NCBI GenBank assembly: GCA_019637675.1
Contig: JAHBVE010000003.1
Location: forward strand, 271,696-335,695
Direction: 5' to 3'
DNA: 64,000 bases
Source: Anaerolineales bacterium
GTDB lineage: Bacteria > Chloroflexota > Anaerolineae > Anaerolineales > UBA11579
The notes under the pieces were generated by a model. That model made no database searches, had not been told where the DNA came from, and saw only the letters and a list, made by a program, of their open reading frames with translations. Positions 2,307 through 43,248 of this stretch are shown here, piece by piece. The stretch's first letter is position 1. Each line of letters starts with the position of its first letter. The position numbers were made by a program, and so were the translations under genes.

Positions 2307-2314
2307 TCTTCACC

Positions 2315-3834: not shown

Positions 3835-3872
3835 AATTCAGGCGCTGAATTATAACGTCAGGGAACTAAAGG

Positions 3873-5405: not shown

Positions 5406-5465
5406 TCAGGAAAACCTCAATGAGTTCTGCGTTGTCTACACGACCTGCTTAATGCTACCAGCGAG

Positions 5466-6626: not shown

Positions 6627-6638
6627 GAGGCGTTGCGA

Positions 6639-9687: not shown

Positions 9688-9695
9688 TGGCCCTG

Positions 9696-17432: not shown

Positions 17433-19327
17433 ACAACACCTTGCGCGCCGGTGAGCGTTTTTAGCTCTTCGTTCGCGCCAAATTGCAGGTCGCAAAAGTG
17501 CTTGTATTCTTTGCAGCGCAGATACAGTTCGGCGTGCTTGCCTTGATCCACGATCTGGCCGCGCGCCAGAACAACAATGTTGTCGGCATGGATCACCGTA
17601 GAAAGCCGGTGGGCGATCACCACCGCAGTCGTATCCTTGATGATGTTGTCGATCGCTCGTTGCACCTGGCGCTCCGATTCGGTATCCAGTGCGCTGGTCG
17701 CCTCATCGAGAACCAGGATGCGCGGGTCATGGTACACCGCCCGGGCGATCGTGATGCGCTGCTTTTGCCCGCCCGAGAGCAGCATGCCGCGGTCACCAAT
17801 AAGCGACTCGTAGCCCTTCGGCAGCTTGTCGATGAACTCGGTGGCATTGGCCACCTCAGCCGCCTTGCGCACTCGCTCCAGGTTGGCGTTCTCGTCGGGA
17901 TAAGCAATGTTCTCGGCCACGGACGCATTGAACAGGATACTGTCCTGCGACACAACGCCGATCATGCGGCGGTACACAGGTAGATCCAGCTCGCGCAGGT
18001 CGGCCCCATCCACGCTGATGCGCCCACTGCGGGGATCATAGAAGCGCAAGATCAGATCCGTGATGGTGGATTTGCCGGCCCCACTCTCGCCGACCAGGGC
18101 CACCATTTGGCCGCGCTCGATCTCGAGATCAATGTGGCTCAATACGCTCTCTTGACCGTATGCAAACGATACGTCTTCAAAGCGGATCCGGTCGACAAAA
18201 TCAGTCTTGACCGTCGTTCCGCTGACGATGGACGCGGTTTCGTCAAAGAATTCCTGCACCCGTTCGCTGGTCGCTACTGTAGTCTGGATAATTTTCAGCG
18301 TGCGGGCCAGATCAGTTAGTGGGTCGAGCACCGCTCGCCCCACATACAAGTAGAGAAAGAAACCTGTCGTACTGAGCCGGCCAGAGATAAGTTCGTTGGC
18401 GGCAAACAGCAGAACGGCCACATTCACCATTGAGTTGATAATGAACGTGACCGGCTCATCCACATGTTTAAAGAAAGAGGATCTGAAGAGCGCCTGAATG
18501 GCTCTACGGGAAAGGGAGGAGAATCTTGTCGCTTCGTAAGGCTCTGCTGCAAACGATTTCACGATACGAATATTGGAAACGACTTCCTGCAGGTAGGATG
18601 TAACCTCGGCCTGCACACCAAACTGCTCACGAACCCGGCGCTGGGCCGGCTTCTTCACAAGCTGAACAAAGATGTACTGTGCAATTGCGGCCAGCACAAC
18701 AAAAAGGCTGAGGCGCAAGCTGGTTTTGATCAACAGCGAGCCGTACAGCAATGCCAGTACGCTCGAAACCACGATCGAGCGCACGATCGCCTCAAGCCCG
18801 GATACGACCGCATCGGTATCCTTGTCCAGGCGAGAGATCAATTCACCCGTGCGATTCTTTGTGAAAAAATCGAGCGACAACCCCATAACGTGTTCCAGCA
18901 GGGCCGCCTGCATTCCACGCCCTGCTCGCACTCGGATCCAGATCCCCAGCAGATAGACCAGAAAGTTCAATACATACAGCACAACAGAGACCAGCAGGTA
19001 CAAGACCGCCACGGTTACGATGACATTCCAGGCGCTGGTTTGCTCAGGAGAGAACAGGTGCAGCAAGTATTGGCCGATGTTGTTCAGGTCAACATCAAAA
19101 ATGCTGTCAGGCACTTCCTCGGTCAGCTGGTTGAACGCCTCCGGCCCATGCACGGCCACTTCCAGCACGGGCGCGGTCACCATCGGCTGGGCCGCGGTTA
19201 GCAGGCTGGCGACGAAGTACAAGGCCAGCGAGAGCAGCATCTGCGGCCAGTACGGCTTCATGAATCGGCTCAGCAGCTGGGCCAGCTGCTTGAATTCGTA
19301 GTTGCGCTTCATGTTGGAGTTGTTCAT
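17429..19327 (-). CDS. Fused TMD-NBD ABC exporter (MsbA/PglK-like lipid or lipid-linked-glycan flippase type)
   Basis: 632 aa. Six N-terminal TM spans; Walker A GESGAGKST; ABC signature LSGGQKQR; Walker B ILVLDEATSALD. Confidence 0.9.
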   Translation of the reverse strand: MNNSNMKRNYEFKQLAQLLSRFMKPYWPQMLLSLALYFVASLLTAAQPMVTAPVLEVAVHGPEAFNQLTEEVPDSIFDVDLNNIGQYLLHLFSPEQTSAWNVIVTVAVLYLLVSVVLYVLNFLVYLLGIWIRVRAGRGMQAALLEHVMGLSLDFFTKNRTGELISRLDKDTDAVVSGLEAIVRSIVVSSVLALLYGSLLIKTSLRLSLFVVLAAIAQYIFVQLVKKPAQRRVREQFGVQAEVTSYLQEVVSNIRIVKSFAAEPYEATRFSSLSRRAIQALFRSSFFKHVDEPVTFIINSMVNVAVLLFAANELISGRLSTTGFFLYLYVGRAVLDPLTDLARTLKIIQTTVATSERVQEFFDETASIVSGTTVKTDFVDRIRFEDVSFAYGQESVLSHIDLEIERGQMVALVGESGAGKSTITDLILRFYDPRSGRISVDGADLRELDLPVYRRMIGVVSQDSILFNASVAENIAYPDENANLERVRKAAEVANATEFIDKLPKGYESLIGDRGMLLSGGQKQRITIARAVYHDPRILVLDEATSALDTESERQVQRAIDNIIKDTTAVVIAHRLSTVIHADNIVVLARGQIVDQGKHAELYLRCKEYKHFCDLQFGANEELKTLTGAQGVV

Positions 19328-19812
19328 GCGATCTTGCGCGCTCCGTTGCCGGCGGGCTTGCTGCGCTCCAGCGAATAGGCGCCATCGCGCATGCGGATGA
19401 TGTACTTGCCGGGCTGCTCATCCAGGGCCAGGCCGCCGGTCTCCAGGCAACTCAGGCGGAAGATGTCCAGCTCCGGGTCGCTGCCATCGATATACACGCT
19501 TTCGATTCCTTTGGCTTGCATCGAGGCGATCAGATCCTTCGCCTGCTCGCGCAGCCCATGATAGACCTTGAGCGAGTCTTTGACATACTGGGTGGCATTG
19601 CGTTGGAAGGCGCGCATGCCCTCGCCGGTCAGGTTGTAGCGCAGACGAGTGCGGTCCATGCGCGTGGCCTTGAGGTAGCCGCGGCTGATCAGGCGCTTGA
19701 TGTACCAGTTGACGCTGCCGATCGCCATGCCCAGCCGGCTGGCTAAACCCGCCTGGGTAATGGTCTCGTCTTCGGCAATAGCTTCCAATAATCGGTATTC
19801 GCGTTGCTTCAC
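19324..19812 (-). CDS. Winged-helix transcriptional regulator with C-terminal domain (paralog of 3316..3834)
   Basis: Start trimmed to the GTG at 19810-19812 (VKQREYRLLEAIAEDE), giving 163 aa, comparable to the 172-aa paralog. ATGA-type overlap with the ABC exporter start. Confidence 0.65.
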   Translation of the reverse strand: MKQREYRLLEAIAEDETITQAGLASRLGMAIGSVNWYIKRLISRGYLKATRMDRTRLRYNLTGEGMRAFQRNATQYVKDSLKVYHGLREQAKDLIASMQAKGIESVYIDGSDPELDIFRLSCLETGGLALDEQPGKYIIRMRDGAYSLERSKPAGNGARKIA

Positions 19813-19885
19813 GGCACACCAGCTTTCAGGAAATGAATTCTGACACGCGCGCCGCACAACTGTCAATAGACATTGAGGGGAGAAG

Positions 19886-20980
19886 CTAGCCCAATTTCTC
19901 GTACAAAATGGCTTCGATACGTTCGGCCGTGCGCCCATCCCATAAGTCGGGCTGCTGGGGAGCCGCCTTCTGCCCCCGCAGCGCACGATAACCCTCAACA
20001 ATCCCCTGAGGGCTGTTGCCCACCAGGCGGTTGCCGCCCATCTGCAGCGTGATCGGGCGCTCCGTGTTCTCGCGCGCCGTCAGGCACGGGATGCCCAGCA
20101 CGGTGCTCTCTTCCTGAATGCCACCCGAGTCCGTCAAGATGAATTGAGCCTGCGTCATCAGGCTAACGAACTCGAGATACCCCACCGGCTCCAGCAGCCT
20201 GACCCCGCTGGCTTGCAGCGCATCCAGCAAGCCCCAGTCGGCCATGCGAGCCCGCGTGCGCGGGTGCACCGGGAAGATCAGCGGCGTGCTTTGCTGGATC
20301 GTAGCCAGCGCCTCAACGATCCCGCACAGCGCGCCTTGCTCATCCACGTTGGATGGGCGATGCAATGTCACCACGCCATACCCACCCGGCGTAAGCCCTT
20401 GCGCTTCCCAGGCGGCCAGCTGCTCAGCGGCCGGCTTGAAACGCAGCAAACTGTCCACCATGATGTTGCCCACGCGGAACACGCGCTCGGGCGGGATGCC
20501 GGCCGCGGCCAGATTCGTATCCGCATCCGGCGAGGGCGTGAATAAATAATCAGCCAGCACATCCGCCACGATGCGGTTGTGCTCCTCTGGCATCTCGCGG
20601 TCAAAGCTGCGCAGCCCGGCTTCCACATGCGCCAACGGAATGTTGAGCTTGTTGGCCGCGATCGAAGCGGCCAGGGTGGCATTGACATCGCCAAAGACAA
20701 CCACCATGTCCGGCCGGCGCGCCGTGAATTCCTTATCCAACTCAAGGATCACGCGCGCCACTTGCTCATTGACGCTGCCGCCATGAATATCCAAGTACAA
20801 ATCCGGCTCGGCCATCTGCAGCTGCCGGAAGAATACGTCTGACATGTTGGCGTCAAAATGTTGGCCAGTATGTATGAGGCGCGCCTGCAGGCGGCCCTTG
20901 GCCTGCACCGCCGCCATCAGCGGCGCCGCCTTCATAAAGTTAGGCCGCGCCCCTACCACCAGCGCCAGTTGCTTGGCCAT
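19886..20980 (-). CDS. wecB: UDP-N-acetylglucosamine 2-epimerase (non-hydrolysing)
   Basis: 364 aa. ARPNFMKAAPL, VFGDVNATLA, HVEAGLRSFD, HRPSNVD, DSGGIQEE are typical WecB/MnaA motifs. Confidence 0.9.
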   Translation of the reverse strand: MAKQLALVVGARPNFMKAAPLMAAVQAKGRLQARLIHTGQHFDANMSDVFFRQLQMAEPDLYLDIHGGSVNEQVARVILELDKEFTARRPDMVVVFGDVNATLAASIAANKLNIPLAHVEAGLRSFDREMPEEHNRIVADVLADYLFTPSPDADTNLAAAGIPPERVFRVGNIMVDSLLRFKPAAEQLAAWEAQGLTPGGYGVVTLHRPSNVDEQGALCGIVEALATIQQSTPLIFPVHPRTRARMADWGLLDALQASGVRLLEPVGYLEFVSLMTQAQFILTDSGGIQEESTVLGIPCLTARENTERPITLQMGGNRLVGNSPQGIVEGYRALRGQKAAPQQPDLWDGRTAERIEAILYEKLG

Positions 20981-20981
20981 G

Positions 20982-22202
20982 CTAGTTCACCAACTCCGCG
21001 GCCTGGGCGGCCACATGCTGGCCGATGGCCAGGCTGGCCGTGGCCCCCGGTGATGGTGCATTCAGCACATGCAGCCAGCCGTCGCCGTGCGCAAAGCGGA
21101 AATCCTCAACCAACTTGCCGTCCTTATCCACCGCCTGGGCGCGCACCCCCGCCCGCGCCGGCAGCAGGTCCTCGGCCGTGACCGCTGGCATCATCTGCTG
21201 CACATCCCGCGCGAACACGCGCACATTCCCTGACCGCATCAATTCACCCAGGCCCATTTTTAGATTTGGCAGCACCAGCCGCCAGAAACCACTGTAACTC
21301 AACGACTCTAACGTATCTTGCAGATCAAAATCCCTACTGAAATAGCCCTCGCGCCGCAGGCTGAACACGGCATTGGGGCCAACCAGCACTTCGCCATCCG
21401 TCATGCGGGTCAGGTGCACACCCAGGAACGGGAAGCGCGGATCGGCCAGCGGATAGACCATGCCGCGCACCAGGTGCTGGGCCTCCGGCCGCAGCCGGAA
21501 GTACTCGCCGCGGAACGGCACGATGCGCAGCCCAGGGTCCACCCCAGTCTGGCGGGCCAGCCGGTCGCTGTACAGGCCGCCGCAGTTCACAGCCACCCGC
21601 GTTTGCACTTCGCCCTGGCTGGTGTGCAGATGCAATATCCCATTTTTGCGCACAAAGCGCTGTAATTTGGCGCCCAGGTGCACTTCTGCGCCCGCCTGCG
21701 CCAGATCCTGCGCCAACGCCCGCGCCACATGCCCATAATCTACGATACCCGCCTGCGGCACCCAGATGGCCTGCAAGGCGCACACATACGGCTCGATCTC
21801 GGCGATACGCTCCTGGCCCACGATCTCCAGCGCCAGCCCGTTCTCGAGGCCGCGCGCATACAGCGGCTGCAGGCGTGGCACTTCGTCCTCGCGGGTGGCG
21901 ACGATCAGCTTGCCGGTCATCTCATACTTGATCTTGTGCTCGTCGCAAAAGGCCAGCATGGCGGTGCGCCCGGCCGCGGTCAGCTGCGCCTTTAAGCTGC
22001 CCTTCTTGTAATAGATACCGGAGTGCAGCACGCCGCTGTTGCGGCCGGATTGGTGCGCGGCTACCTGCGGCTCCTTCTCCAGCACGGCCAGCGAGCTGCC
22101 GGGGTACTGCTGCAGCAAGGCCCACGCCGTCGCCAACCCCACCAGGCCGCCGCCGATCACCACAAAATCATATGGCTTGGTTTGCATACCTGAAGTCATC
22201 AT
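20982..22202 (-). CDS. lhgO: L-2-hydroxyglutarate oxidase/dehydrogenase (FAD-dependent)
   Basis: 406 aa. FAD motif DFVVIGGGLVGLA, then HQSGRNSGVLHSGIYYKKGSLKA, typical of the LhgO family. Confidence 0.8.
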   Translation of the reverse strand: MMTSGMQTKPYDFVVIGGGLVGLATAWALLQQYPGSSLAVLEKEPQVAAHQSGRNSGVLHSGIYYKKGSLKAQLTAAGRTAMLAFCDEHKIKYEMTGKLIVATREDEVPRLQPLYARGLENGLALEIVGQERIAEIEPYVCALQAIWVPQAGIVDYGHVARALAQDLAQAGAEVHLGAKLQRFVRKNGILHLHTSQGEVQTRVAVNCGGLYSDRLARQTGVDPGLRIVPFRGEYFRLRPEAQHLVRGMVYPLADPRFPFLGVHLTRMTDGEVLVGPNAVFSLRREGYFSRDFDLQDTLESLSYSGFWRLVLPNLKMGLGELMRSGNVRVFARDVQQMMPAVTAEDLLPARAGVRAQAVDKDGKLVEDFRFAHGDGWLHVLNAPSPGATASLAIGQHVAAQAAELVN

Positions 22203-31363: not shown

Positions 31364-31375
31364 TTTCAAATAACA

Positions 31376-31412
31376 AATAAAAAAAGGCCGGCAAATTGCC
31401 GGCCTTTTTTTA
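31376..31412. terminator. Bidirectional intrinsic terminator between convergent genes
   Basis: AAAAAAA-GGCCGGCA-aa-TTGCCGGCC-TTTTTTT. Serves the + gene ending at 31363 and the - operon ending at 31410. Confidence 0.75.
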
Positions 31413-32294
31413 TTTGCTTGCGATGCCAGCGCGTGCCAGCACGCGCCGCGCCGCTTTCACCAGCGGCATATCGATCATCTTGCCGTCCAGCGCGAACGCG
31501 CCGCGGCCCTCAGCCTCGTGCTGCTCATACGTGTCCACTACACGCTGGGCCCAGGCCGTGTCCTCCGCGCTGGGCGTGAAAGCCGCCAGCACCGGCGCGA
31601 TCTGGTCAGGGTGCACGATCTGCATCCCGCTGTAGCCCAGCCGCGCTCCTTGCGCCGCCAGCCGCCTCAGACCTGCGCTGTCCTTGAAGTTGACGTGCAG
31701 CATATCAATGGCCTGCAGGCCGAAGGCGGCCGCATACGTCACCACCGCGCTGCGCGCGTAGAATACCTCTTCAGCTTCATCGGTGCGGATCGCGCCCACA
31801 TCGCTGGCAAAATCCTCCGACCCAAAGACCAGCGCCACCAGATGCGGGTCCGCACTGGCGATCTCTTTCAAGTTCACCACACCCATCGCACTTTCGATCT
31901 GGGCGAGTAAGCTCAACGTGTTGGGCGCCAGCGAGCGCGCTTGCTCTGCTTGCTGCAAGCGCGTACCCACTGTTTGCACATCCGCCGCGCCGGCGGCCTT
32001 CGGCAGCACGAGACCCTGCAAATTCGGGTGGCTGGCCAACTGTAGATCCTCGGCCTGCAAGCCGCTATCGGCTGCATTCACGCGCACCAGGCGCTCACTG
32101 TTGCCAAAATCCAGCTCGCTCAACGCCTTGGCGATCAGTGTGCGCGCTTCCGCCTTGCTGCTGGGCGCCACGCCGTCTTCCAGGTCCAGGCATACGCAAT
32201 CCGCGCCCAAGCCGGCGGCCTTCTCCATCTTGCGCCAATCGCTACCGGGCACATACAACAGGGTGCGCCTGGCGCGCATCGAGCTATTCTGCAT
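31410..32294 (-). CDS. HpcH/HpaI aldolase - citrate lyase beta (CitE)-like acyl-CoA lyase (HMG-CoA/citramalyl-CoA lyase type)
   Basis: 294 aa. LYVPGSDWRKMEKA, CLDLEDGV, FGSEDFASD are typical CitE-family motifs. Last gene of the carboxylase operon. An alternative ATG lies at 32279. Confidence 0.85.
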   Translation of the reverse strand: MQNSSMRARRTLLYVPGSDWRKMEKAAGLGADCVCLDLEDGVAPSSKAEARTLIAKALSELDFGNSERLVRVNAADSGLQAEDLQLASHPNLQGLVLPKAAGAADVQTVGTRLQQAEQARSLAPNTLSLLAQIESAMGVVNLKEIASADPHLVALVFGSEDFASDVGAIRTDEAEEVFYARSAVVTYAAAFGLQAIDMLHVNFKDSAGLRRLAAQGARLGYSGMQIVHPDQIAPVLAAFTPSAEDTAWAQRVVDTYEQHEAEGRGAFALDGKMIDMPLVKAARRVLARAGIASK

Positions 32295-32748
32295 CAGCTG
32301 CCTCGCGTTTCAAGAACATGACCGCCCGCTCGATCTCGACAACAACCTCGCCGGTCTGCTTGTACCCAATATGGCGCAGGCGCACCACACCGCGGTCAGG
32401 CTTGCTGCTGGAGGGGCGCTTCTCCAGAACCTCAGTCTCGACTCGGATCGTATCGCCGGCGAATACCGGGGTGGGGTGATTGACCTTTTCATAGCCCAGG
32501 TTGGCCACGATCGTCCCTTCGGTTAGTTCCGAGACCGTGATCCCCACCACCACACCAAAGGTGAAAATGCCATTCACGATCCGCCGGCCGAACTGGTTGC
32601 GTTTGGCAAACTCCTCATCCATGTGCAGCGGCTGGGTATTCATGGTCAGCCCGCTGAAGAGCACGTTGTCCGCCTCGGTGACCGTACGGGTGGCGGCATG
32701 GGCAAAGCGCTGGCCTATGCTCAAGTCTTCGTAAAACTTACCCGCCAT
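32284..32748 (-). CDS. MaoC-family (R)-specific enoyl-CoA hydratase/dehydratase
   Basis: Start trimmed to MAGKFYEDLSIGQRF. Hot-dog fold pattern (TEADNVLFSGLTMNTQPLHMDEEFA...). Confidence 0.85.
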   Translation of the reverse strand: MAGKFYEDLSIGQRFAHAATRTVTEADNVLFSGLTMNTQPLHMDEEFAKRNQFGRRIVNGIFTFGVVVGITVSELTEGTIVANLGYEKVNHPTPVFAGDTIRVETEVLEKRPSSSKPDRGVVRLRHIGYKQTGEVVVEIERAVMFLKREAADAE

Positions 32749-33229
32749 CACCAGGCTCCAATTCCACCAATAATTGGTCTTTTTCCACGCTCTGACCTTC
32801 AGAAACGACAACCTGCGCCACTTTTGCGTCCTGGCTGGCGCTGATGCGCACCTCCATCTTCATCGCTTCCAGCAGCACCAGGACCGCACCGGCACTGACC
32901 TGCTGCCCGGGCTGCACCAGCACCTTGCGCACCTGGCCCGGCATCGGCGCCCGCAGGCTGCGCTCGGCGCCGGCTGCCTGGCCGCCGGCGCGGCCGCCGG
33001 CCGTACGGCGCAGCAGAAAGCTGCACCCAGCCACATGCAGCCAGGTGTCGCGACCGTCTTTTGCCCAAGCCACCTGTACGCTGCGGCCGCCAATGTTCAA
33101 CTCCAGCGGCTGGCCGCGCACGATCGTGGCCTCGTGCACCTGCCCATCGACGAGCAAACGCAGTTGCTCGCCGTGCGCCTGCAGTTCAATAGTATAGGCC
33201 TGCCCGCGGTGCTCAAAGCTGAACTTCAT
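32738..33229 (-). CDS. Stand-alone biotin carboxyl carrier (biotinyl/lipoyl attachment) protein
   Basis: Start MKFSFEH (ATG 33227-33229) forms an ATGA overlap with the biotin carboxylase stop. C-terminal biotinylation motif LEAMKME. Confidence 0.8.
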   Translation of the reverse strand: MKFSFEHRGQAYTIELQAHGEQLRLLVDGQVHEATIVRGQPLELNIGGRSVQVAWAKDGRDTWLHVAGCSFLLRRTAGGRAGGQAAGAERSLRAPMPGQVRKVLVQPGQQVSAGAVLVLLEAMKMEVRISASQDAKVAQVVVSEGQSVEKDQLLVELEPGDGG

Positions 33230-34722
33230 CGCCCGCCACCCATGCGGAAGCCGCTGCCGCTCGCCCACGGCGAATATGGGTCAGTTGCTTCCTGCTCAGC
33301 TGTCGCCGCGGGCTGCAATTCCAGCGCCGCGGCAGCCAGCAAGGCTTCCAGAGATATTTCATCTGGCTGCCAGTCCGCGAACCTGCGCTCGATGAACTGA
33401 GTATCAAAGTCGCCAGCCGCCACGGCTGAGTCAGCCAGCACAGCCTGCAAGAAGTCAATGTTGTTGACCACGCCCAGCAGCACTGTTTGGGTCAACGCCG
33501 CCCGCATGGCGGCCAGCGCCTGCGCGCGGTCGGCCGCGTGCACGCTCACCTTGGCCAGCATCGGGTCGTAGTGCACGCTCACCGTCTGGCCTTCGGCGAT
33601 GCCCGCATCCACCCGCGCGTCTCGCGGGAATTGCAAACACAGCACCTTGCCCGCCTGCGGAAGAAAGTTCGCCGCCGGGTCCTCGGCATAGATACGGCAC
33701 TCGATGGCATGGCCGCGCTGCGCCAGTTCGCTCTGCGTAAGCGGCTGCGCCTCGCCTGCCGCTACGCGCAGCTGCCACTCGACAATATCCACACCTGTGG
33801 TGAGCTCCGTTACCGGGTGCTCCACTTGCAAGCGGGTGTTCATTTCCAAGAAATAGAATTCGCGCGTACCCGGGTCAACCAGAAATTCCACCGTGCCGGC
33901 ATTGGTGTACTCCACCGCCGCAGCGGCCGCCACCGCCGCCTCACACATCGCTGTCCGCAATCGCTCATCCAGCAAAGGTGACGGCGTCTCCTCCACCACC
34001 TTCTGCCGCCTGCGCTGCAGCGAACATTCACGCTCGAACAAATGCAGCAGCTTGCCATGCTGGTCGCCCAGCACTTGCACTTCCATATGCCGCGCCGTTG
34101 CCAGGTACTTCTCCAGCACCAGGCGCTCGTCGCCGAACGCGCTGGCGGCCTCGCGCCGCGCCGCCGCGATCGCATCGCTTAGCTCAGCCGCAGCGTGCAC
34201 CACACGCTGGCCCACGCCGCCGCCGCCGGCCGCGGCTTTTACCAGCAGCGGGTAGCCCAACTCGGCCGCGGCGGCCTGCAGTTTCGCATCACTATCCTCG
34301 CCCTGATAACCGGGCAGCACCGGCACGCCCGCCTGCAGCATCAGTTGGCGCGCCGTGGCCTTGTCGCCCATCGCCCGTATGGCGGCCGGCGGCGGCCCGA
34401 TCCATACCAGGCCGGCGTCCATCACCGCCTGGGCGAACTCGGCATTCTCTGCCAAAAAACCGTAGCCGGGATGCACTGCGCCCGCTCCGGTCTGCTGTGC
34501 CGCGGCCAATACCGCGGCGATGTTGAGATATGAGTCACGCGCCGCGGCCGGGCCGATCAGCAGGGCTTCATCCGCTACCTGCGTATGCAACGCGCCAGCA
34601 TCCGCCTCGGAGTACACCGCAACGCTGGCCAGGCTTAGTTTCTTGCACGCTTGCGCCACGCGCACGGCGATCTCGCCCCGGTTGGCGATCAGTACTTTCG
34701 CAAAAGGCAACGGCTTGGACAT
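33226..34722 (-). CDS. Biotin carboxylase subunit of an acyl-CoA (methylcrotonyl-CoA type) carboxylase, lacking the BCCP domain
   Basis: Start trimmed to MSKPLPFAKVLIANRGEIAVR. ATP-grasp motifs (GYPLLVKAAAGGGG, EMNTRLQVEHPVTE). 498 aa, ending before any biotinyl domain. Confidence 0.9.
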   Translation of the reverse strand: MSKPLPFAKVLIANRGEIAVRVAQACKKLSLASVAVYSEADAGALHTQVADEALLIGPAAARDSYLNIAAVLAAAQQTGAGAVHPGYGFLAENAEFAQAVMDAGLVWIGPPPAAIRAMGDKATARQLMLQAGVPVLPGYQGEDSDAKLQAAAAELGYPLLVKAAAGGGGVGQRVVHAAAELSDAIAAARREAASAFGDERLVLEKYLATARHMEVQVLGDQHGKLLHLFERECSLQRRRQKVVEETPSPLLDERLRTAMCEAAVAAAAAVEYTNAGTVEFLVDPGTREFYFLEMNTRLQVEHPVTELTTGVDIVEWQLRVAAGEAQPLTQSELAQRGHAIECRIYAEDPAANFLPQAGKVLCLQFPRDARVDAGIAEGQTVSVHYDPMLAKVSVHAADRAQALAAMRAALTQTVLLGVVNNIDFLQAVLADSAVAAGDFDTQFIERRFADWQPDEISLEALLAAAALELQPAATAEQEATDPYSPWASGSGFRMGGGR

Positions 34723-36761
34723 CACGGCTCGCAACTCAACAGTTCGAACGCCGATTCTACGCTGGCGGCATCCACGCCGTTGGCGTCCAGCCGCGCCCAC
34801 AGGTCACACAGCATCGGCTGCATCAGCTTGGTGACCGTGTACGAGGTCTGCGTCAATTCCAGCGCACGCTGGGTGTTGCCCAGCATGGCATAACCCTCGA
34901 TAAAGGGCGTTCGCTCCGCCGGGTGGTTAGGATAGTCGTCCAATGCAAAAGCGCGGTCACCCAGTGCGGCCACCTCGGCCCAATCACCAAACTGGCGCGC
35001 CAGATCCGCCTTTTGAAAATAAAAGCACCAGGTCTCGCGCGGCTGCATATCCCAATACGGGAATTCGGCCGCGGTCGGAGCCGAGCTTTGCTGGATCATG
35101 CCCAGATTGCTCAGCTCAAGCAGACCGGCAACCTCTTTCGATAAGAGTGGGAAACGCGCGTCGATCTGCGGGTCGAGGATGCGCAGACAGCCCGGCGGCT
35201 CGTAGATCAGCACGAGCACATCTTTCGCCGTGCCTTCATAGTCAACAAAGTCATACGTACGCTGAATGTGGCCGCTGCTCGTCAACTCAGCCAGGTCGCG
35301 GGTGCTGCGCAGGTTGGCAAAGAAGAACGCGTGATTTAAACGCTGGCTCTCATGGGTCGGCGTGTATATCCAGTTCAGGGTCCCGGTAAGGGAATAGTCG
35401 GTGTTGTGCGCAAGCACGCGCAGCTCGGGCGAGATGATGGCTGCGTTGTCCGCCAGGTCAGGCGCCCGCCACGAAAGCTGGCGCGCAAACTCCGCCTGGC
35501 GTAACCACTCCAGGCGATACTGGTTGGCCGTGATGAAGTGCACTCCCACGCTCAGCCCCAGCAGGACCGCCAATGTGGCCATCCCCAACCGGCGCGAGCC
35601 CCAGGGCCGGCTGCATACAGCCGCCAGCAGCAGGCTGGCCCCAAACATCATCGGCATCGTGAAGCGGTCGCTGGGAAAGGAAAGGTCAAGCCGCAGATCC
35701 GCCACCCAGAACGAGAGGCCGGAAACCGCCAGCGCCACAAGGCCTAGCCACACCGCGTCACGGGCATGTTCGCCGCGCTTAGCGCTTTTGAGCACGACCC
35801 AGGCCACGCCCGCCGCAACCAGCACCACGGGCACATACGCAAGCGTGACCACAGAGCCGGCCTCCAGGTTTTGCAGCATGGTGATGGTCTTGCCCCAGGC
35901 CAGCAGGCCGCCCTTGATCACATCGCCGGCGGCGTGCCCAAGCCATTCCACCAGCGCGGGCAGCGGGTTGGCGGTAATCTTTTGCAGCAGGGTCGTGCCA
36001 TACAGCGCGTTATCCTGCTGGCTGGCCCACTGCCTCCAGACGAATACCCCCGCCAACACCAGCGCATACGGCCACCAACGCACCAGCGCACTCTGGAGCT
36101 GTTTGCGAGTGCTAGGCTTGAGCACAAGATAGAAAAGGAACGGGCGCAGCAGTTCAAGCCCATAGAAATATTCCGTGCACAACATGCTCGCCAGACCCAA
36201 AGCGATCGACGCGGCGTGCAAGCCAATGGCATTCTTGTCCGCCCGCAGCGCCTTAACCATCAGGACCAGCGACAGCAAGAACAGCGTGTAGTAGAAAAAG
36301 TACACGCTATACGTTACAGAGATGCTTTGCTGGCTAAAGCCCGGATACAGCAGGAACAATAGCGCGGCCGTCACCACAAAGCGGCGGTGCTGCGGCCACA
36401 GCAAGTTCACCAACCAATAGAAGCTGATCGCGCTGATCCAACGCCACAACAGGTTGGCAAGCTGCCAACCCAACGCGCCTTCGCCCAAAACAGAAAAGAA
36501 TATGTAATACACCCAGCCAGACAGCGGCCGGTAAGCGGCAAAATCTTGATAAATCTGCGGCCCAAACTGATAACTGCTCCACGCCAACGGCCAATCATCC
36601 CAGTACAGACCCAGCCAAGGGATGAACACGCCGTACGCCAAATACGCGAGCACAGCGCTCAACAGCAAGAACAACGCATGCGGCGAGCGTTCGCCCCAAC
36701 CAGAAATCCGTTGATTCAAATCAGCCAATAACTTCTTCAAAACGCTCCTGAAGCTGTTCAT
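34722..36761 (-). CDS. Polytopic membrane protein with soluble Cys-containing C-terminal domain, paralog A (GT-C-like, unassigned family)
   Basis: 679 aa. Roughly 11-13 hydrophobic spans, then an approximately 240-aa hydrophilic domain. [14 protein letters not shown] follows TM1. About half the residues are identical to 36758..38794 by eye. ATGA overlap upstream and 1-nt overlap downstream. Confidence 0.7.
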   Translation of the reverse strand: MNSFRSVLKKLLADLNQRISGWGERSPHALFLLLSAVLAYLAYGVFIPWLGLYWDDWPLAWSSYQFGPQIYQDFAAYRPLSGWVYYIFFSVLGEGALGWQLANLLWRWISAISFYWLVNLLWPQHRRFVVTAALLFLLYPGFSQQSISVTYSVYFFYYTLFLLSLVLMVKALRADKNAIGLHAASIALGLASMLCTEYFYGLELLRPFLFYLVLKPSTRKQLQSALVRWWPYALVLAGVFVWRQWASQQDNALYGTTLLQKITANPLPALVEWLGHAAGDVIKGGLLAWGKTITMLQNLEAGSVVTLAYVPVVLVAAGVAWVVLKSAKRGEHARDAVWLGLVALAVSGLSFWVADLRLDLSFPSDRFTMPMMFGASLLLAAVCSRPWGSRRLGMATLAVLLGLSVGVHFITANQYRLEWLRQAEFARQLSWRAPDLADNAAIISPELRVLAHNTDYSLTGTLNWIYTPTHESQRLNHAFFFANLRSTRDLAELTSSGHIQRTYDFVDYEGTAKDVLVLIYEPPGCLRILDPQIDARFPLLSKEVAGLLELSNLGMIQQSSAPTAAEFPYWDMQPRETWCFYFQKADLARQFGDWAEVAALGDRAFALDDYPNHPAERTPFIEGYAMLGNTQRALELTQTSYTVTKLMQPMLCDLWARLDANGVDAASVESAFELLSCEP

Positions 36762-38794
36762 TCAGAATTGCAATTCAAAAGCTCAGTCACCGGTTGAGCT
36801 TGTCCCGCGCCTGCCGCTTCCAGCTCGCTCCACACCGCGCACAACACAGGCTGCAGGCTGGGCATTTTGGCCAGCGCCTCCTCCGTGAACATCACGGCCT
36901 CGCCGCCACGGCCAAGCCGCGCATACGCCTCGATGAAGGGAACGTACTCCACGGCATGATCAGGATACAAACCCAAGCCGAAAGCCGTGTCCCCAAGCTG
37001 GGCAGCCGCCTGCCAATCTTGCTGCTGGCGGGCCAGGTCAGCCTTCTGAAAATAGAAGCACCAGGTCTCGGCCGACCCCAGATCCCAGAACAGTCCGCGC
37101 TCGCTGAACGGGCTGGCCTCCGCCTGAATTCGAGACGGATCGCTCAGCCCAATGATTGGCTTGAGCTCATGCGAAAGCTCAGGCAAATTCGCGGCGATCT
37201 GCGGGTCGAGCACATGCAGGCAAGCAGGCGGCTGGTATGCGAAGGTCAGCATCACCACTTCCGAGCGGTCACCGCGGTATTCGAGAAAATCGAACGGCGC
37301 ATAAATAGGATCACCTGTTCGCAAGCCGGCCAGCCGGGTTTGCCCGCGCAGCTCTGCATAAAAGAAGGCGTGCGGCAGCCGCTCGGTCTCCGCTCCCGGA
37401 GTGACGTACATCCAATTGAGCAGACCCGTCAGCGAGTTGTCCGTGTTGAACTGCAGCACGCGCAGCTGCGGGCTTACGACCGCAGTGTTGGGCTCCAGGC
37501 TGGGCGCACGCCAGGCAAGCTGCCGGGCGAAGTCTTCCATATACAGCCACTCGGCCCGGAACTGGTTGCTCTTATAAAAATGAAAACCAACACACAAGCC
37601 TAGCAACACAGCCATAAGAATTTGCGCAGTAGGCCTATGTATCCGCAAGAATCCCCACAGCCCGGCCACGATCAGACTGACCCCAAACATCATCGGCATG
37701 GTGAAGCGATCATTCGGGAAGGCCAACGCCATCGGCAAGGCCGCCATCCAAAACGAGAGGCCAGACACCGCCAGCGCGATAAGCCCCAGGCCCAGCATGT
37801 CCCGCGCGGTCGCCCCGTTCTGCGCGGGCAGCTTGTTCACGCCCAGCATCGCGACCGCACCGGCGATCACCGCGCCAACCGTCACAGCAATATATGAGAT
37901 CGAGGAGACCGAGAGCGCTCGCAGGCTGCCCAGCGCCTCCACCGTGCGCGTCCAGGCCATGACCGCGCCCAAGCTCAGGTCACGCAGCGCGGTCGGCGCC
38001 CACACCGAGAGCGCGTACACGGGGTCATCCTGGATCCGGCCCAGCAGCACCGTGCGATACAGCGCCCCGCTTTGCTGGCTGGCCCAGTTGCGCCACAGGA
38101 ACACGCCCACCAGCATCGCCGCATATGGCAGCCAGGCGATGACCGCGCGCTTCCAGTCGCCCACGTTGCGCGGCCGCAGCGCAATGACGAGCAACACTGG
38201 GCGCAGCAACTCCAGCCCATAGAAGTACTCCGTGCAGGTCATGCTGAATACGCCCAACGCCAGCGCGCCCAGCGTAGCGCCCCAGGCGCGTTCGCTCCGG
38301 GCCGCCACCAGCATCAGCGCCAGCGACGCAAGGAACATGCTGTAATACAAAAAGTACACACTGTACGTGACCGCAATGCTCTGTTGGCTGAACCCTGGAT
38401 ACACAAGAAACAGCAGGCCCGCCACCACCGCCAACGCCTTCTCCCGCGGCCACAACAAACGCACCACCCAGAAGAAGGCCAGCCCGCTCACCCAGCGCAA
38501 CACCAGCGCCAACAGGTGCCAGCCTAACGGGGCTTCGCCTAGCAGCGAGAACAAAAAGTAATAGACCCAGCCAGACAGCGGCCGGTAGGCCGGGTAACCC
38601 TGATAGACCTCCGGCCCAAAGTGGTGGCTGCTCCACGCCAGCGGCCAGTCGTCCCAATACAACCCCAGCCACGGGATCAGCAGCCCGTACGCCAAAACGC
38701 ACAGGACAAAACTAACTACTGGAAACCAGTAGTCTTTTTCGCTGTCGGTTACTTTGCGCAACCAGGTCTGCAATGGGCTAAGCATGCGGCTCAC
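36758..38794 (-). CDS. Polytopic membrane protein with soluble Cys-containing C-terminal domain, paralog B (GT-C-like, unassigned family)
   Basis: 678 aa. GTG start at 38792-38794 overlaps (GTGA) the carboxyltransferase stop; an alternative ATG is 3 codons in. Same architecture and motifs as paralog A. Confidence 0.7.
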
Positions 38795-40401
38795 ATCCTG
38801 AATACGCCAAAGCCCTCACCTGTGCGCGGCGCCTTCAGCACCACCGAGAGCGCCAACCCCAGCACCGTACGCGTTTCCGCCGGGTCCAGGATCCCATCGT
38901 CCCACAAGCGCGCCGTGGAGTAATACGGATGGCCTTCATGCTCATACTTGTCCAGGATCGGCTGCTTGAGCGCGGCCGCCTCGGCCTCCGTCAGCGCCGG
39001 CTTGCCCTCGCGCTCCAGCTGGTCTTGCTTGATCGTCAGCATCACGTTGGCGGCCTGTTCGCCGCCCATCACGCTGATGCGCGCGTTCGGCCACATCCAC
39101 AAAAAGCGCGCGTCGTAGGCCCGCCCGGCCATGCCGTAGTTGCCGGCCCCGAACGACCCGCCGATGATGACGGTCAGCTTGGGCACCGTGGCCGTGGCCA
39201 CGGCGTGCACCATCTTGGCCCCATCCTTGGCGATGCCGCCGGCCTCATACTCTCGCCCCACCATGAAGCCGGTAATGTTCTGCAGGAACAGCAGCGGGAT
39301 GCCGCGCTGCTCACACAACTCAATAAAATGGGCGCCCTTCAACGCGCTCTCACTGAACAGGACGCCGTTGTTTCCCAAGATGCCCACCGGGTATCCATGA
39401 ATACGCGCAAAGCCGCACACCAGCGTGTCGCCATAGCGGGCCTTGAACTCACGGAAGCGGCTGCCATCCACAACGCGGGCGATCACTTCGCGCACGTCAT
39501 AGCTCTCGCGGAAGCTGGTCGGCAGCACGCCATACAGCTCCTCCGCCGGATACAGCGGCTCCTCCGGTGCGCCCACCGGCGTCTGCAGGGTGCTGCGATC
39601 AGGCAAGGTCTCAACGATCTGCCGCAGGATCTCGATGGCGTGCTCGTCATCCTCGGCAAAGTGATCCGCCACACCAGACAGGCGCGTATGCACATCCGCG
39701 CCGCCCAACTCTTCGGCGCTGACATCCTCACCCGTGGCGGCTTTGACCAGCGGCGGGCCGCCCAGAAAAACAGTGCCGGTGCCTTTAACAATGATGGCCT
39801 CGTCGCTCATGGCCGGCACATACGCGCCGCCTGCCGTGCACGAGCCCATCACCGCTGCGATCTGCGGAATGCTCTTAGCGCTCATTTGCGCCTGGTTGTA
39901 GAAGATGCGCCCGAAGTGCTGCTCGCCCGGGAACACCTGGTCCTGCATCGGCAGGAACGCGCCGCCCGAATCCACCAGATACAAACACGGCAGATGGTTC
40001 TGCATGGCGATCTGCTGAGCGCGCAAATGCTTGGTCACGGTGAGTGGGTAGTACGAGCCGCCTTTGACCGTGGCGTCATTGGCCACGATCATGACTTCGC
40101 GCCCGGCCACGCGGCCGATGCCGGCCACAATGCCCGCCCCCGGCGCGTCATCATCATAGATACCCTCCGCCGCCAACGCCGAAAGCTCCAGGAACGGCGA
40201 GCCGGCATCAAGCAAGCGCTCGATGCGCTCGCGCACGAACAGCTTGCCGCGCTGCTCATGCCGCGCCCGCGCCTCGGTCCCGCCGCCGGCGTGCACCGTC
40301 GCCAGCTTGGCGCGCAATTCCTCCGCCAGGGCGCGGTGGTGCTCGCTGTTCTTCTTGAATTCAGGGGAATTGGAGTCTATACGGCTGGAAAGAGAGTCCA
40401 T
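38791..40401 (-). CDS. Acyl-CoA carboxylase carboxyltransferase (beta) subunit, methylcrotonyl-CoA carboxylase type
   Basis: 536 aa. Typical MccB/AccD1 features ([13 protein letters not shown]..., [30 protein letters not shown]). Confidence 0.9.
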
Positions 40402-40428
40402 GCCTGAATTATAGACTTTCGCCAGCCC

Positions 40429-42792
40429 TTATTTGAAATATGCGATCGTCACGCCTTCACCACCCTCATGCGGGTTGGCGAAGACGTAGCGTTCCACATA
40501 GTTGCGCTTGCGCAGCATGTCGCGCGCCATCTCGCGCAGCGTGCCGGTGCCCTTGCCGTGAATGATGCGCGCCGAGCGCAACCCCGAGGCGTACGCCGCG
40601 TCCAGGTACGCATCCAGCTTATTGTAGGCGTCCTCAAAGCGCATCCCGCGCAGCGACACCTCGGAGGCCACTGCATCCGGCAGCTGCACCGTGCCCTGCC
40701 AGTCCGGCAGGCTCTCGCTGGCCGGCTCGTCCAGCAGCTCCAGGTCGGTATAGCGCGCCCGCGCCCGCAGCGCGCCCACCTGCAGTTCAGCCTCTTCTTC
40801 GCTCAGGCCGATCACGACGCCGCGCGCCCCCAGGCTGCGCACGCGCACCGCATCACCCAGGCGCAGCGCCCGCCCCGGCGCCGATTCCGGCACCGCCTGG
40901 CGCTGCACCGGCTCTTCCACCGTATCTTCCAGCGCTTCGATGGCTTGCTTGACCGCCTGCACCTTGTCCAGCGGCTCGCGCTGGCGCGCCAGGTCGGCCC
41001 GCAGCCGGCCGGCTTGGGTCTTCAACGCGTCCAGTTCCTGCTTGGCTTGCTTGCGCGCGGTCTCCAGCACTTCGATGCGCTCGTCTTCGATCAGCTCCAG
41101 ACGCTCAGCCAGTTCAGCGCGCAAGGCCTCCGCGCTGCGCTCGGCCTCCGCCGCCCGTTCGTGCGCCCGGCGGGCGCGTTCGCGCTCGCGGTGAATATCG
41201 TCCAGCAGGTCTTCGGCCTTCAGGTCGGCCGGGTCGATCCCGCTGCGCGCTTGCTCCAACACTTCGTCGCTCAAGCCCAGCCGCTTGGCGATCGCTAGCG
41301 CATTCGAGCGGCCCGGCAAGCCCACGGTCAGGTGATAGGTAGGCGCCAGCGTCTTCAGGTCAAACTCCACGCTGGCATTCACCACGCCTTTGGTGCCCTG
41401 CGCATACACCTTCAGCTCAGGGTAATGTGTGGCCACCAGGGTGGTGATGCCGCGCCGCACCAAATGGTCCAGCAGCGCCCGCGCCAGGGCCGCACCCTCT
41501 TGCGGGTCGGTGCCGGCGCCCAGCTCATCAAAGATCACCAGCGAGCGCTTGTTGGCGTGCTTTAGGATGCTGACAATGTTGGTGATATGGCCGGAAAACG
41601 TGGAGAGCGACTGCTCGATCGATTGCTCATCGCCAATATCTGCGTATACAGACTCAAAAAATGAGATCTGGCTGCCCGCCGCCGCCGGAATGTGCAGGCC
41701 GCTCTGGCCCATCAATGCCAGCAGGCCCACTGTCTTGAGCGTGACGGTCTTGCCGCCCGTGTTCGGGCCGGTGATGACCAGGCAGTAATTCTCAGGGAAC
41801 AACTCAATATCAGACGAGACGACCCGCTCCGGGTCCAGCAGCGGGTGGCGCGCATCGAACAGGCGCAGGGTCACGCCCGGGTGCGGCCCATCTACGTGCG
41901 GGCGCAGCGGCAGCAGCTCGGGCGCATGGGCGCGCAGCTGCTCGGCATACTTGGCCCGCGCCAGCACCAAGTCCAGCTCGGCCAGGCCCTCCAGCGCCGC
42001 GCCGATCGCTTCGCTGTGCGTTTGCACCAGGGCGGTCAGCGCCAGCAGGATGCGGCGCTCCTCCTCGCGCTCGGCCAGTTGCAGCTCGCGCCAGGTGTTG
42101 TTCAGCTCCACCACGCTCAGTGGCTCGATGAACAGCGTCGCCCCGCTGGCCGATTGGTCATGCACCACGCCTTTGACCCGGCCGCGCTCCTCCGCCCGGA
42201 TCGGCAGCACATAGCGCCCATCCCGCTGCGTAAAGATCGGCTCCTGCAGCGCCTTGGCATACGGGTCGCTGCTCAGCATCTTCTGCATGCGCCCCAGCAG
42301 GCGCTCGTGCGCAACACCCAGCTCACTACGGATCTGGGCCAGCTGCTCCGAAGCATTATCGAGGATCTGGCCGCGCTCAGAGATGGCCTTGGTGATCGCA
42401 TCCACCACGCCCACCGGCTGCGGCATCTGCGCCGCCAGCTCGGCCAGCAGGGGGTAGCTGGCCTCGGCGTCCTGCAGTTGGCGCGCCAGCGTGCGCGCCG
42501 CTACCAGCGTGCCCTTTACATCCAGCAGCTCGGCTGCGGTCAGCGCCATGCCGCGGCGCGCGTTGCCCAACGCCGGGCGCAGGTCGCGCGCCCCGCCCAC
42601 GCCTACCTTGGGCTGGTCCTCCAGCAACGCACGCGCTTCGCCAGTCTCTGCCAGCCGGCGCCGGGCCGCGTCAATATCGGCGGCCGGGCGCAGCGCTTCG
42701 GCGCGCTCCTGCGAGACGCTGAAGACCGTATGGCGCGCCAAACGCTCCAACACCTTGGGAAACTCAAGCGTTTGCAGGGCTTTTTCGTCCAT
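40429..42792 (-). CDS. mutS2: Endonuclease MutS2 (MutS domain plus C-terminal Smr)
   Basis: Start trimmed to MDEKALQTLEFPKVLERLA. Walker A GPNTGGKT. C-terminal Smr domain (RGMRFEDAYNKLDAYLD...IIHGKGTG). Confidence 0.9.
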   Translation of the reverse strand: MDEKALQTLEFPKVLERLARHTVFSVSQERAEALRPAADIDAARRRLAETGEARALLEDQPKVGVGGARDLRPALGNARRGMALTAAELLDVKGTLVAARTLARQLQDAEASYPLLAELAAQMPQPVGVVDAITKAISERGQILDNASEQLAQIRSELGVAHERLLGRMQKMLSSDPYAKALQEPIFTQRDGRYVLPIRAEERGRVKGVVHDQSASGATLFIEPLSVVELNNTWRELQLAEREEERRILLALTALVQTHSEAIGAALEGLAELDLVLARAKYAEQLRAHAPELLPLRPHVDGPHPGVTLRLFDARHPLLDPERVVSSDIELFPENYCLVITGPNTGGKTVTLKTVGLLALMGQSGLHIPAAAGSQISFFESVYADIGDEQSIEQSLSTFSGHITNIVSILKHANKRSLVIFDELGAGTDPQEGAALARALLDHLVRRGITTLVATHYPELKVYAQGTKGVVNASVEFDLKTLAPTYHLTVGLPGRSNALAIAKRLGLSDEVLEQARSGIDPADLKAEDLLDDIHRERERARRAHERAAEAERSAEALRAELAERLELIEDERIEVLETARKQAKQELDALKTQAGRLRADLARQREPLDKVQAVKQAIEALEDTVEEPVQRQAVPESAPGRALRLGDAVRVRSLGARGVVIGLSEEEAELQVGALRARARYTDLELLDEPASESLPDWQGTVQLPDAVASEVSLRGMRFEDAYNKLDAYLDAAYASGLRSARIIHGKGTGTLREMARDMLRKRNYVERYVFANPHEGGEGVTIAYFK

Positions 42793-42941
42793 CCTGCGCA
42801 GTGTATCACGCAGCATGTGTGCCTTTTTGCACGAGCCTAGTTGCTGCGCGTTGCAGATTCCTGTATGATTCGTTTCAGAGGGTGCGCCGTTGTGCAACGG
42901 TTTCACTATCCTCCTGGCCCAACGGCGCGTGAAGGGCCAAC

Positions 42942-43232
42942 ATGGACGTTATCAAGGTCTCAGGTGCATCACGTACCTCTGCGGTGGCCGGCGCCATTGC
43001 CGGGGTGTTTCGGGAACACAAACGGGCAGAGATCCAGGCCATTGGCGCCGGCGCGGTTAACCAGGCTGTAAAGGCGCTGGTTCTGGCGCGCAGCTACTTG
43101 AAAGAAGATGGCTACACCGTCTACTGCACGCCGGAGTTTGCGGATGTCGAGATCGAAGGCAAGGTCCGCACCGCCATCAAGCTCGTCATCGAATGTCACG
43201 AAGCAGCCACAGAAACAAAAAACGCCGCATAA
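42942..43232 (+). CDS. spoVS: Stage V sporulation protein S homolog
   Basis: 96 aa. MDVIKVSGASRTSAVAGAIAGVFRE...IQAIGAGAVNQAVKA is the characteristic SpoVS sequence. Confidence 0.9.
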   Translation: MDVIKVSGASRTSAVAGAIAGVFREHKRAEIQAIGAGAVNQAVKALVLARSYLKEDGYTVYCTPEFADVEIEGKVRTAIKLVIECHEAATETKNAA

Positions 43233-43248
43233 GCGGCGTTTTCTTTTA
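43222..43248 (+). terminator. Intrinsic terminator of spoVS
   Basis: ACGCCGC-ataa-GCGGCGT followed by TTTTCTTTT. The stop codon lies in the loop. Confidence 0.7.

Follow-up and report, generated by a model that had tools for sequence, protein, structure and literature searches.

The scheme in which a lipid-phosphate-sugar synthase, a flippase and a GT-C-fold glycosyltransferase form one system is well established, with PgfS and ArnC being polyprenyl-phosphate sugar synthases. In Streptococcus mutans, the Pgf system comprises the GT-A synthase PgfS, the epimerase PgfE and the GT-C transferases PgfM1 and PgfM2 (PMC12041528, PMC5856776), and the pgf operon O-glycosylates Ser/Thr-rich protein segments (PMC12041528). 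New GT-C families are still being founded, such as GT136 (PMC11127046). Here, we describe X and X', a tandem pair of membrane protein genes that sit among carboxylase genes on a 64,000-nt stretch of DNA from an Anaerolineales bacterium (assembly GCA_019637675.1, contig JAHBVE010000003.1, positions 271,696 to 335,695). This whole stretch is referred to as the window, and coordinates are positions within it. We consider it likely that X and X' are extracytoplasmic, lipid-linked-sugar GT-C glycosyltransferases that were duplicated and carried into the operon by rearrangement, rather than participants in leucine catabolism.

X (36758..38794, minus strand) encodes 678 aa when read from a GTG, and X' (34722..36761, minus strand) encodes 679 aa from an ATG. 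Both products are predicted to be GT-C-fold membrane glycosyltransferases with about 11 transmembrane helices each, and they share 51% identity across 660 aligned aa (BLASTP, E = 0). X lies on the side of the carboxyltransferase (CT) gene and is the faster-evolving paralog; X', on the side of the biotin carboxylase (BC) gene, is closer than X to the single-copy genes of related genomes.

The predicted structure of X supports placing the pair among GT-C enzymes. An AlphaFold2 model built from a 36-sequence alignment (predicted local distance difference test, pLDDT, 89.4; predicted template modelling score, pTM, 0.90) has an all-helical membrane region (residues 5-429), which gives way to a mixed alpha/beta domain with a helical-repeat tail. 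Its top 13 Foldseek matches in the PDB are all GT-C enzymes (yeast and human STT3, ArnT, AglB and AftD), with probabilities of 0.98-1.0 and E-values of 1e-4 to 2e-2. AftA and EmbB follow lower in the list, the GT-C matches overall spanning probabilities of 0.91-1.00 and E-values of 1e-4 to 0.1, and transporters score far below them. Catalytic GT-C enzymes such as ArnT, PglB and PMT are expected to carry an acidic motif (DxD, ExD or DD) in the first extramembrane loop after the first transmembrane helix (TM1). In X, the motif YWDDW occupies residues 46-50, directly after TM1 (residues 5-37), and among the 261 family members in which conservation was counted, D48 is conserved in 99% and D49 in 96%. 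The codons for this putative catalytic pair, in the first loop after TM1, lie at 38648..38653 (minus strand) in X, and the DD codons of X' at 36594..36599 (minus strand). Four loop arginines (R71, R198, R235 and R363) and R429 are 98-100% conserved in the same set, with R363 and R429 reaching 100%.

The C-terminal soluble domain (residues 428-678 of X; 36761..37513, minus strand; 34725..35471, minus strand, in X') combines a beta-rich subdomain with about three TPR-like repeats and contains four cysteines (C525, C579, C652 and C675) that are conserved in 100% of the 261 members, which fits an oxidising compartment. When modelled alone (pLDDT 83.5), its last ~110 residues match TPR, PPR and OGT-TPR repeats in Foldseek. 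No PDB match to the beta-rich subdomain was returned by Foldseek, and this part therefore gives no hint of a carbohydrate- versus a protein-binding role. We infer that the domain lies outside the cytoplasm and contains disulfide bonds; a simple count based on hydropathy and the positive-inside rule was too coarse to give a clear sidedness. The model supports assigning X and X' to the GT-C-fold enzymes, with a distinctive Cys-stabilised TPR-like domain. A preliminary description made from the sequence alone had anticipated much of this. The two minus-strand paralogous open reading frames (ORFs) it reported are real, with the lengths it gave and all of its quoted identical runs in the translations. 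The AlphaFold2 model and the 261 members agree with the architecture it outlined, namely a membrane region followed by a domain with four conserved cysteines and a helical-repeat tail, and with the DD hallmark it placed after TM1. Its tentative GT-C-like assignment is strengthened by the fold matches (STT3, ArnT, AglB, AftD, AftA and EmbB), by the nearly invariant DD and by a GT2 neighbour that recurs across Anaerolineae.

The X family is not captured by current Pfam or NCBIfam models. Neither X nor X' has a match in Pfam or NCBIfam scans, and every named homolog is a "hypothetical protein" of about 680 aa from Anaerolineales or Chloroflexota. When 36 members were scanned with Pfam at E <= 1, TPR_2 was matched by 12, PMT_2 by one (E = 1e-3) and YfhO by none, and neither window protein reaches the PMT or PMT_2 gathering threshold. 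An hhalign comparison of the family with PMT_2-type neighbour proteins was weak (E = 1.5e-4, probability 51%), and a profile search of PDB sequences yielded no more than a weak C-terminal TPR match. No description of the family was found in the literature on Chloroflexota or Anaerolineae. The preliminary description could not name a family and had suggested profile searches with models such as PMT_2 and YfhO; these give no family assignment, and the family still stands unnamed.

The family is large and essentially confined to Anaerolineae. A pattern scan of Genome Taxonomy Database (GTDB) species genomes confirmed 572 relatives, and a profile search of 1.84 billion cluster representatives (50% identity) returned 4,326 at E <= 1e-3 and 1,755 at E <= 1e-30. 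Neighbourhoods of distant homologs were counted in 80 listed loci of the 572 relatives (31-41% identity), with adjacency counts made on 77 loci. Almost every one of the 80 loci carries an Anaerolineae or Chloroflexota label, and cultured species such as Leptolinea tardivitalis, Anaerolinea thermolimosa and Levilinea saccharolytica are represented among them. The sole listed locus labelled outside Chloroflexota is L048, an X homolog at 3356..5314 of a 6.5-kb contig (CAVCBG010000073.1) binned as Anaerovoracaceae (Firmicutes), which reflects either mis-binning or horizontal transfer.

These neighbourhoods associate the family with sugar activation. Clustering of ~1,180 ORFs neighbouring X homologs identified a dominant neighbour, a GT2 glycosyltransferase of ~320 aa with two C-terminal hydrophobic helices, which directly adjoins the X homolog on the same strand in 43 of the 77 loci. 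The median gap between X and GT2 is 8 nt (all 52 GT2 genes in the loci), and the GT2 cluster makes up only 4.4% of the ORFs there. Its top NCBIfam matches, both full-length, are PgfS (248-260 bits, under the equivalog cut-off of 500 bits) and ArnC (153-157 bits). The frequency with which this PgfS/ArnC-like GT2 adjoins X is an indirect hint that X and X' may use a lipid-phosphate-linked sugar donor. A GalE-like epimerase directly adjoins the X homolog in 16 of the 77 loci, and genes for a WecE-type aminotransferase, WbqC and DedA/VTT proteins also recur nearby. Three layouts are seen repeatedly: AlaS - X - GT2 - (GNAT - WecE-type aminotransferase), GT2 - X - GalE-like epimerase, and DedA/VTT - X - GT2 - WbqC - methyltransferase. 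At 12 of the 80 loci, two or three X genes stand in tandem. By tblastn, CT, BC, biotin carboxyl carrier protein (BCCP), MaoC and CitE were found within 10 kb of X in none of the 80, and a carboxylase link across the whole family was rejected on this basis.

Other neighbours recur at smaller numbers of loci. A DedA/VTT membrane protein gene lies just 5' of X in L004, L005, L006, L024 (9354..9914) and L038, and another is present at 2336..2926 of L090. The DedA/VTT family has been implicated in polyprenyl-phosphate recycling, and its members here may be the lipid-carrier handling component of the X system; no dedicated flippase gene was identified in the X homolog loci, with DedA/VTT present in five of them. 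A second GT-C protein of ~550 aa (Pfam PMT_2, E = 4e-6) is encoded just upstream of X in L002, L013 (8356..10011), L016 and L039. In AlaS-type loci, including L008, L011, L014, L015 (13266..14780), L018 and others, X or GT2 is followed by a conserved protein of ~500 aa with a weak Baseplate_J-like Pfam match, which precedes RuvX and MltG.

In the window, however, X and X' are found with carboxylase genes. The CT gene (38791..40401, minus strand), first of seven genes, encodes the beta subunit of 3-methylcrotonyl-CoA carboxylase (MCC; Pfam Carboxyl_trans, E = 7e-159). Its sequence, which scores 810 bits against Pseudomonas aeruginosa MCC beta (3u9r) and 799 bits against Mycobacterium tuberculosis AccD1 (4q0g) in the PDB, identifies it as an MCC beta ortholog. 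Just 5' of its start is a sigma-70-like promoter candidate (TTCAAA, 18 nt, TATAAT; 40408..40437, minus strand; 10/12 matches), which is a consensus match only, with three such sites in the region against 2.3 expected. MCC alpha is divided between two genes (32738..34722, minus strand): the N-terminal part is BC (33226..34722, minus strand; Pfam/NCBIfam), and the C-terminal part is a BT domain plus BCCP (32738..33268, minus strand; Pfam BT_MCC_alpha and Biotin_lipoyl). The Pfam BT_MCC_alpha match spans both products, and the split is kept in every related locus from L083 to L088. Next are a MaoC-type (R)-specific enoyl-CoA hydratase (32284..32811, minus strand; Pfam/NCBIfam), RipB/Ich-like and presumed to be a methylglutaconyl-CoA hydratase, and a CLYBL-like acyl-CoA lyase of the CitE/HpcH family (31410..32294, minus strand), presumed to act on 3-hydroxy-3-methylglutaryl-CoA (HMG-CoA) or citramalyl-CoA. 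The nearest match of the latter is human CLYBL, and it also matches, with E = 4e-33, 6aq4 ("citrate lyase subunit beta-like protein"), a PDB chain that we take to be M. tuberculosis CitE. An intrinsic terminator with a 20-bp stem and T-run (31374..31416, minus strand) closes the unit.

The junctions within this unit are tight. The MCC beta stop TGA occupies 38793..38791, and on direct reading the GTG at 38794 overlaps it as GTGA. An alternative in-frame ATG at 38785, preceded at 10 nt by an AGGA, is used by the database copy P0001 (675 aa) and is the probable true start of X; depending on the start, MCC beta and X overlap by 4 nt or are separated by 5 nt. The X stop and X' start overlap as ATGA (36761..36758, direct reading), and the X' stop TGA (34724..34722) has one base in common with the BC ATG at 34722, the likely start of BC. 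The longer BC frame starting at GTG 34800 arises from the calling of maximal ORFs and was dismissed. A candidate internal terminator at 38734..38714 was likewise rejected, having a 9-bp stem and a poor T-tract and lying within the X coding region. No convincing internal terminator was seen between the promoter candidate and the end terminator. With one promoter-like site, one strong terminator and nothing convincing between them, the seven genes look like one unit, and in the window genome X and X' probably share a transcript and translational coupling with the carboxylase genes. The single transcription and translation unit proposed in the preliminary description is consistent with this, and its naming of CT, BC, BCCP, MaoC and CitE agrees with the Pfam, NCBIfam and PDB matches, so that by sequence similarity the label of leucine-catabolism, AccD1/AccA1-MaoC-CitE-like genes is sound. 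Of the overlaps it listed at every junction, the ATGA and the 1-nt overlap are present, whereas the GTGA applies to the GTG start and gives way to the 5-nt gap if translation begins at ATG 38785.

Comparison with close relatives places this arrangement within a single Anaerolineales clade. A near-identical relative (X/X' 94% and 93%) has the same CT-X-X'-BC order. Relatives with X at 41-56% identity have a single X upstream of BC-BCCP-MaoC-CitE, in varying company: CT-X-BC in L083; CT-X-DinB (opposite strand)-LRR-BC in L085, a complete 2.24-Mb genome; SnoaL_2/DinB-X-BC in L086 and L087; and CT-SnoaL_2-SnoaL_2-X-BC in L088. The gap between CT and BC is thus a variable slot holding SnoaL_2, DinB_2 (opposite strand), LRR and hypothetical genes (L085 11789..13115, L086 1307..2946, L087 99..820 and L088 9200..9918). 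Genes for DUF4349, metallophosphatase, cytidine deaminase, CNNM and GlmU proteins are also conserved around the operon in the clade, as are those for DnaN, a PPDK_N protein, dNK, SpoVS and MutS2 on the upstream side. As the entire neighbourhood of 15-20 kb is syntenic, X-BC adjacency in the clade reflects general synteny and carries no specific signal. A SpoVS-like ORF of 96 aa (42942..43232, plus strand) lies on the opposite strand between dNK and MutS2, likewise in L085, L088 and L091, and has a strong bidirectional hairpin terminator at its end (43217..43244).

Within the conserved neighbourhood, X itself diverges rapidly. Between L085 and the window, identity is 95% for CT, 92% for MutS2 and 85% for BC, but 55% for X. 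When L085, L083 and L088 are compared with 34722..42906 of the window, X/X' show 41-56% identity, MCC beta 84-95% and MutS2 70-92%. Divergence of this kind typically marks surface-modifying enzymes that evolve under diversifying selection, or a fixed locus at which genes have been replaced. In a neighbour-joining tree, the X and X' lineages are sister clades nested within the single-copy genes of the clade, with the X type alone left in L083 and the X' type alone in L085, indicating duplication and later differential loss. The MCC beta orthologs (79-85% identity) of three further Chloroflexota genomes lack both BC and X within 8 kb. Among the three, the metagenome-assembled genome JAHCII01 has an X homolog on another contig (L064) without carboxylase genes. 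Since MutS2-CT and X-BC-BCCP-MaoC-CitE are separate blocks elsewhere, the junction between CT and X marks a rearrangement breakpoint. The carboxylase association is limited to one Anaerolineales clade and is inherited synteny, not a recurrent independent association. A survey of homolog neighbourhoods, as suggested in the preliminary description, thus found neither a one-off insertion, the arrangement being kept down to ~41% identity, nor recurrence beside carboxylase genes in independent lineages.

Taken together, we favour the following explanation. A GT2 of the PgfS/ArnC/GtrB type, which in the window genome would have to be encoded elsewhere, would make a polyprenyl-phosphate monosaccharide at the cytoplasmic face of the membrane. 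This lipid-linked sugar would be flipped across the membrane, and on the outer side X or X' would attach the sugar to an acceptor in the envelope, be it a protein segment or a wall polysaccharide, which the TPR-like domain would select. Tandem duplication within the Anaerolineales clade would have given rise to X and X', whose specificities for acceptor or sugar probably differ. The operon position of the pair would be a by-product of the BC-BCCP-MaoC-CitE block, with X just upstream, having been juxtaposed to the MutS2-MCC-beta block. Paralogy, the size and taxonomic range of the family, the predicted fold, the conservation of its motifs and the neighbourhood counts are documented here; donor type, sidedness, acceptor and co-transcription are the parts of this explanation that we infer.

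Several observations weigh against it. The GT-C fold assignment of X rests on a predicted model, and its Foldseek GT-C matches have modest E-values (1e-4) and TM-scores of only ~0.3. An outside location is likewise only presumed for the DD loop and the Cys/TPR domain. Neither the 64-kb window nor the loci of close relatives (4-22 kb) contain a PgfS/ArnC-type GT2, so for this clade the case for a donor synthase comes from distant paralogs or orthologs. X-BC adjacency also lasts down to ~41% X identity, and the tight start/stop overlaps imply that selection tolerated, or perhaps favoured, co-expression, so that some regulatory coupling is possible. A Pgf-like arrangement with a GT2 adjoining the GT-C gene was found in the wider family and was missing from the window and close relatives. 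The only GT2 candidates in the window, generic enzymes without C-terminal transmembrane helices within an unrelated polysaccharide cluster, were rejected as partners. This polysaccharide/glycan cluster (1347..22202, minus strand), ~12 kb from the operon, encodes several GT4 and GT2 proteins, together with a DegT-type aminotransferase (10467..11585), an ABC exporter (17429..19327) and a UDP-GlcNAc 2-epimerase (19886..20980), and could make a substrate for X/X'.

Other activities have been considered for a protein with this fold. X and X' could be like the oligosaccharyltransferases STT3, PglB, AglB and PglL, moving a preassembled glycan en bloc from polyprenyl-diphosphate to proteins; STT3 and AglB are the top Foldseek matches, and the window holds a glycan assembly cluster with an ABC exporter at 1.3-22 kb. 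However, ArnT scores about as well as STT3, and the recurrent neighbour is a PgfS/ArnC-type synthase of polyprenyl-monophosphate sugars. The Pfam STT3 model matches neither window protein and none of the 36 members at E <= 1, and a WWDXG-type motif (WWD) is absent from residues 428-678 of X and X'. En bloc transfer is accordingly unlikely. A role without transferase activity, as a PIG-U-like scaffold or recognition subunit, a glycan polymerase or ligase, or a transporter or recycler of the lipid carrier, seems quite improbable. It is in keeping with the presence of WaaL (rank 20) and PIG-U (rank 27) at lower probability in the Foldseek list, and with the DedA/VTT gene upstream of X in some loci, and catalysis by the family is itself a prediction. 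Nevertheless, a nearly invariant DD after TM1 with invariant loop arginines is the pattern to be expected of catalytic GT-C enzymes, and GT-C transferases hold the top 13 ranks (0.98-1.0 versus 0.47 for WaaL).

A further question is whether the operon placement is adaptive, with the GT-C pair acting alongside the MCC/MaoC/CitE pathway so that, for instance, envelope glycosylation is coupled to leucine-derived HMG-CoA, to the supply of isoprenoid lipid carrier or to branched-chain acyl units. The start/stop overlaps at three junctions, the single promoter-like site and single terminator for seven genes, and the position of X directly upstream of BC in L083, L086, L087 and L088 (41-56% identity) speak for such a link. 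However, carboxylase genes accompany X in none of the 80 distant loci, where the family-wide partners are sugar-activation genes, and three other Chloroflexota genomes have an MCC beta gene with no linkage to BC or X. Even within the clade, an opposite-strand DinB gene and an LRR gene part X from BC in L085, SnoaL_2 or DinB genes lie between CT and X in L086-L088, and the synteny extends over the whole 15-20 kb. We therefore regard a working partnership with the pathway as very improbable. The connection to branched-chain acyl-CoA and HMG-CoA metabolism raised in the preliminary description is not upheld, given the empty count among distant loci, the restriction to one syntenic clade and the passenger genes that share the slot. 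More narrowly, recruitment of the GT-C genes into the MCC operon could have served a purpose, with envelope glycosylation co-regulated with, or supplied by, branched-chain catabolism. X-BC adjacency down to ~41% identity and the coupled junctions in the window leave this a slight chance, and we give it very little weight. Glycosylation by a lipid-linked-sugar GT-C pair that arrived in the operon by rearrangement is the explanation we retain.

Anaerolineae are abundant in sediments, digesters and wastewater, and their cell envelope is almost uncharacterised. The X family, with thousands of sequence clusters and often several copies per genome, is invisible to Pfam and NCBIfam, yet appears to be the main GT-C-type surface glycosyltransferase of the class, paired with a PgfS/ArnC-like donor synthase. 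Recognising it would correct "hypothetical protein" annotations and provides a handle on envelope and protein glycosylation in the phylum, as a candidate new CAZy GT-C family with a Cys/TPR acceptor domain. It also cautions against reading function off operon position in one lineage. Were recruitment for a reason to be true, it would represent a previously unknown metabolic-envelope coupling, such as from leucine-derived HMG-CoA to polyprenyl carrier synthesis. What is new here is an unannotated GT-C family; the type of system is already known and no new metabolic link is revealed. The finding is of moderate interest for Chloroflexota envelope biology and annotation, and holds no surprising new mechanism.

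Among known systems, the flanking genes match the leucine-catabolism/itaconate cluster Rv2498c-Rv2502c of M. tuberculosis (CitE, MaoC-type hydratase, AccA1 and AccD1), with the difference that MCC alpha is split into BC and BT-BCCP genes in the window. We know of no membrane glycosyltransferase in that cluster. For X itself, a GT-C core followed by TPR repeats presumably resembles the architecture of eukaryotic TMTC1-4, and bacterial PMT_2-TPR proteins likewise have TPR-type repeats C-terminal to a GT-C membrane core. X differs from both in having only ~3 TPR-like repeats, a beta-rich subdomain before them and four invariant cysteines, and it has no significant sequence similarity to PMT_2. 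In the ArnC/ArnT system, undecaprenyl-phosphate-L-Ara4N is synthesised and its sugar transferred to lipid A. ArnT structures (5f15 and 5ezm) are within the five best fold matches of X, the GT2 of homolog loci aligns full-length to the ArnC model, and the logic of a lipid-phosphate sugar donor with outer-face transfer is the same as that proposed for X. However, X has no PMT or PMT_2 match above threshold and a different C-terminal domain, and lipid A is, to our knowledge, not expected in these organisms.

Three-component systems (GtrA/GtrB/Gtr-type, CsbB/YfhO and GT136) also pair a polyprenyl-phosphate-sugar synthase with a GT-C enzyme, as in the X homolog loci. Their GT-C part is variable, fast-evolving and often duplicated, much like X, with its tandem copies in 12 of 80 loci and its 55% identity between flanks at 85-95%. 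X loci differ in lacking an identified dedicated flippase, with DedA/VTT in some, and in belonging to no recognisable sequence family. The Pgf system differs in that PgfM1 and PgfM2 belong to Pfam YfhO, which X does not match, and in that X has a Cys-rich, TPR-like C-terminal domain. The neighbouring GT2 scores below the 500-bit PgfS equivalog cut-off, and in the window neither a GT2 nor an epimerase adjoins X/X'. Nevertheless, the full length of that GT2 aligns with the PgfS model of NCBIfam (248-260 bits), the membrane partner in both has a GT-C fold (predicted for X) with an acidic motif in an extramembrane loop, and the GT2 - X - GalE-like epimerase order of many Anaerolineae loci mirrors the pgf operon.

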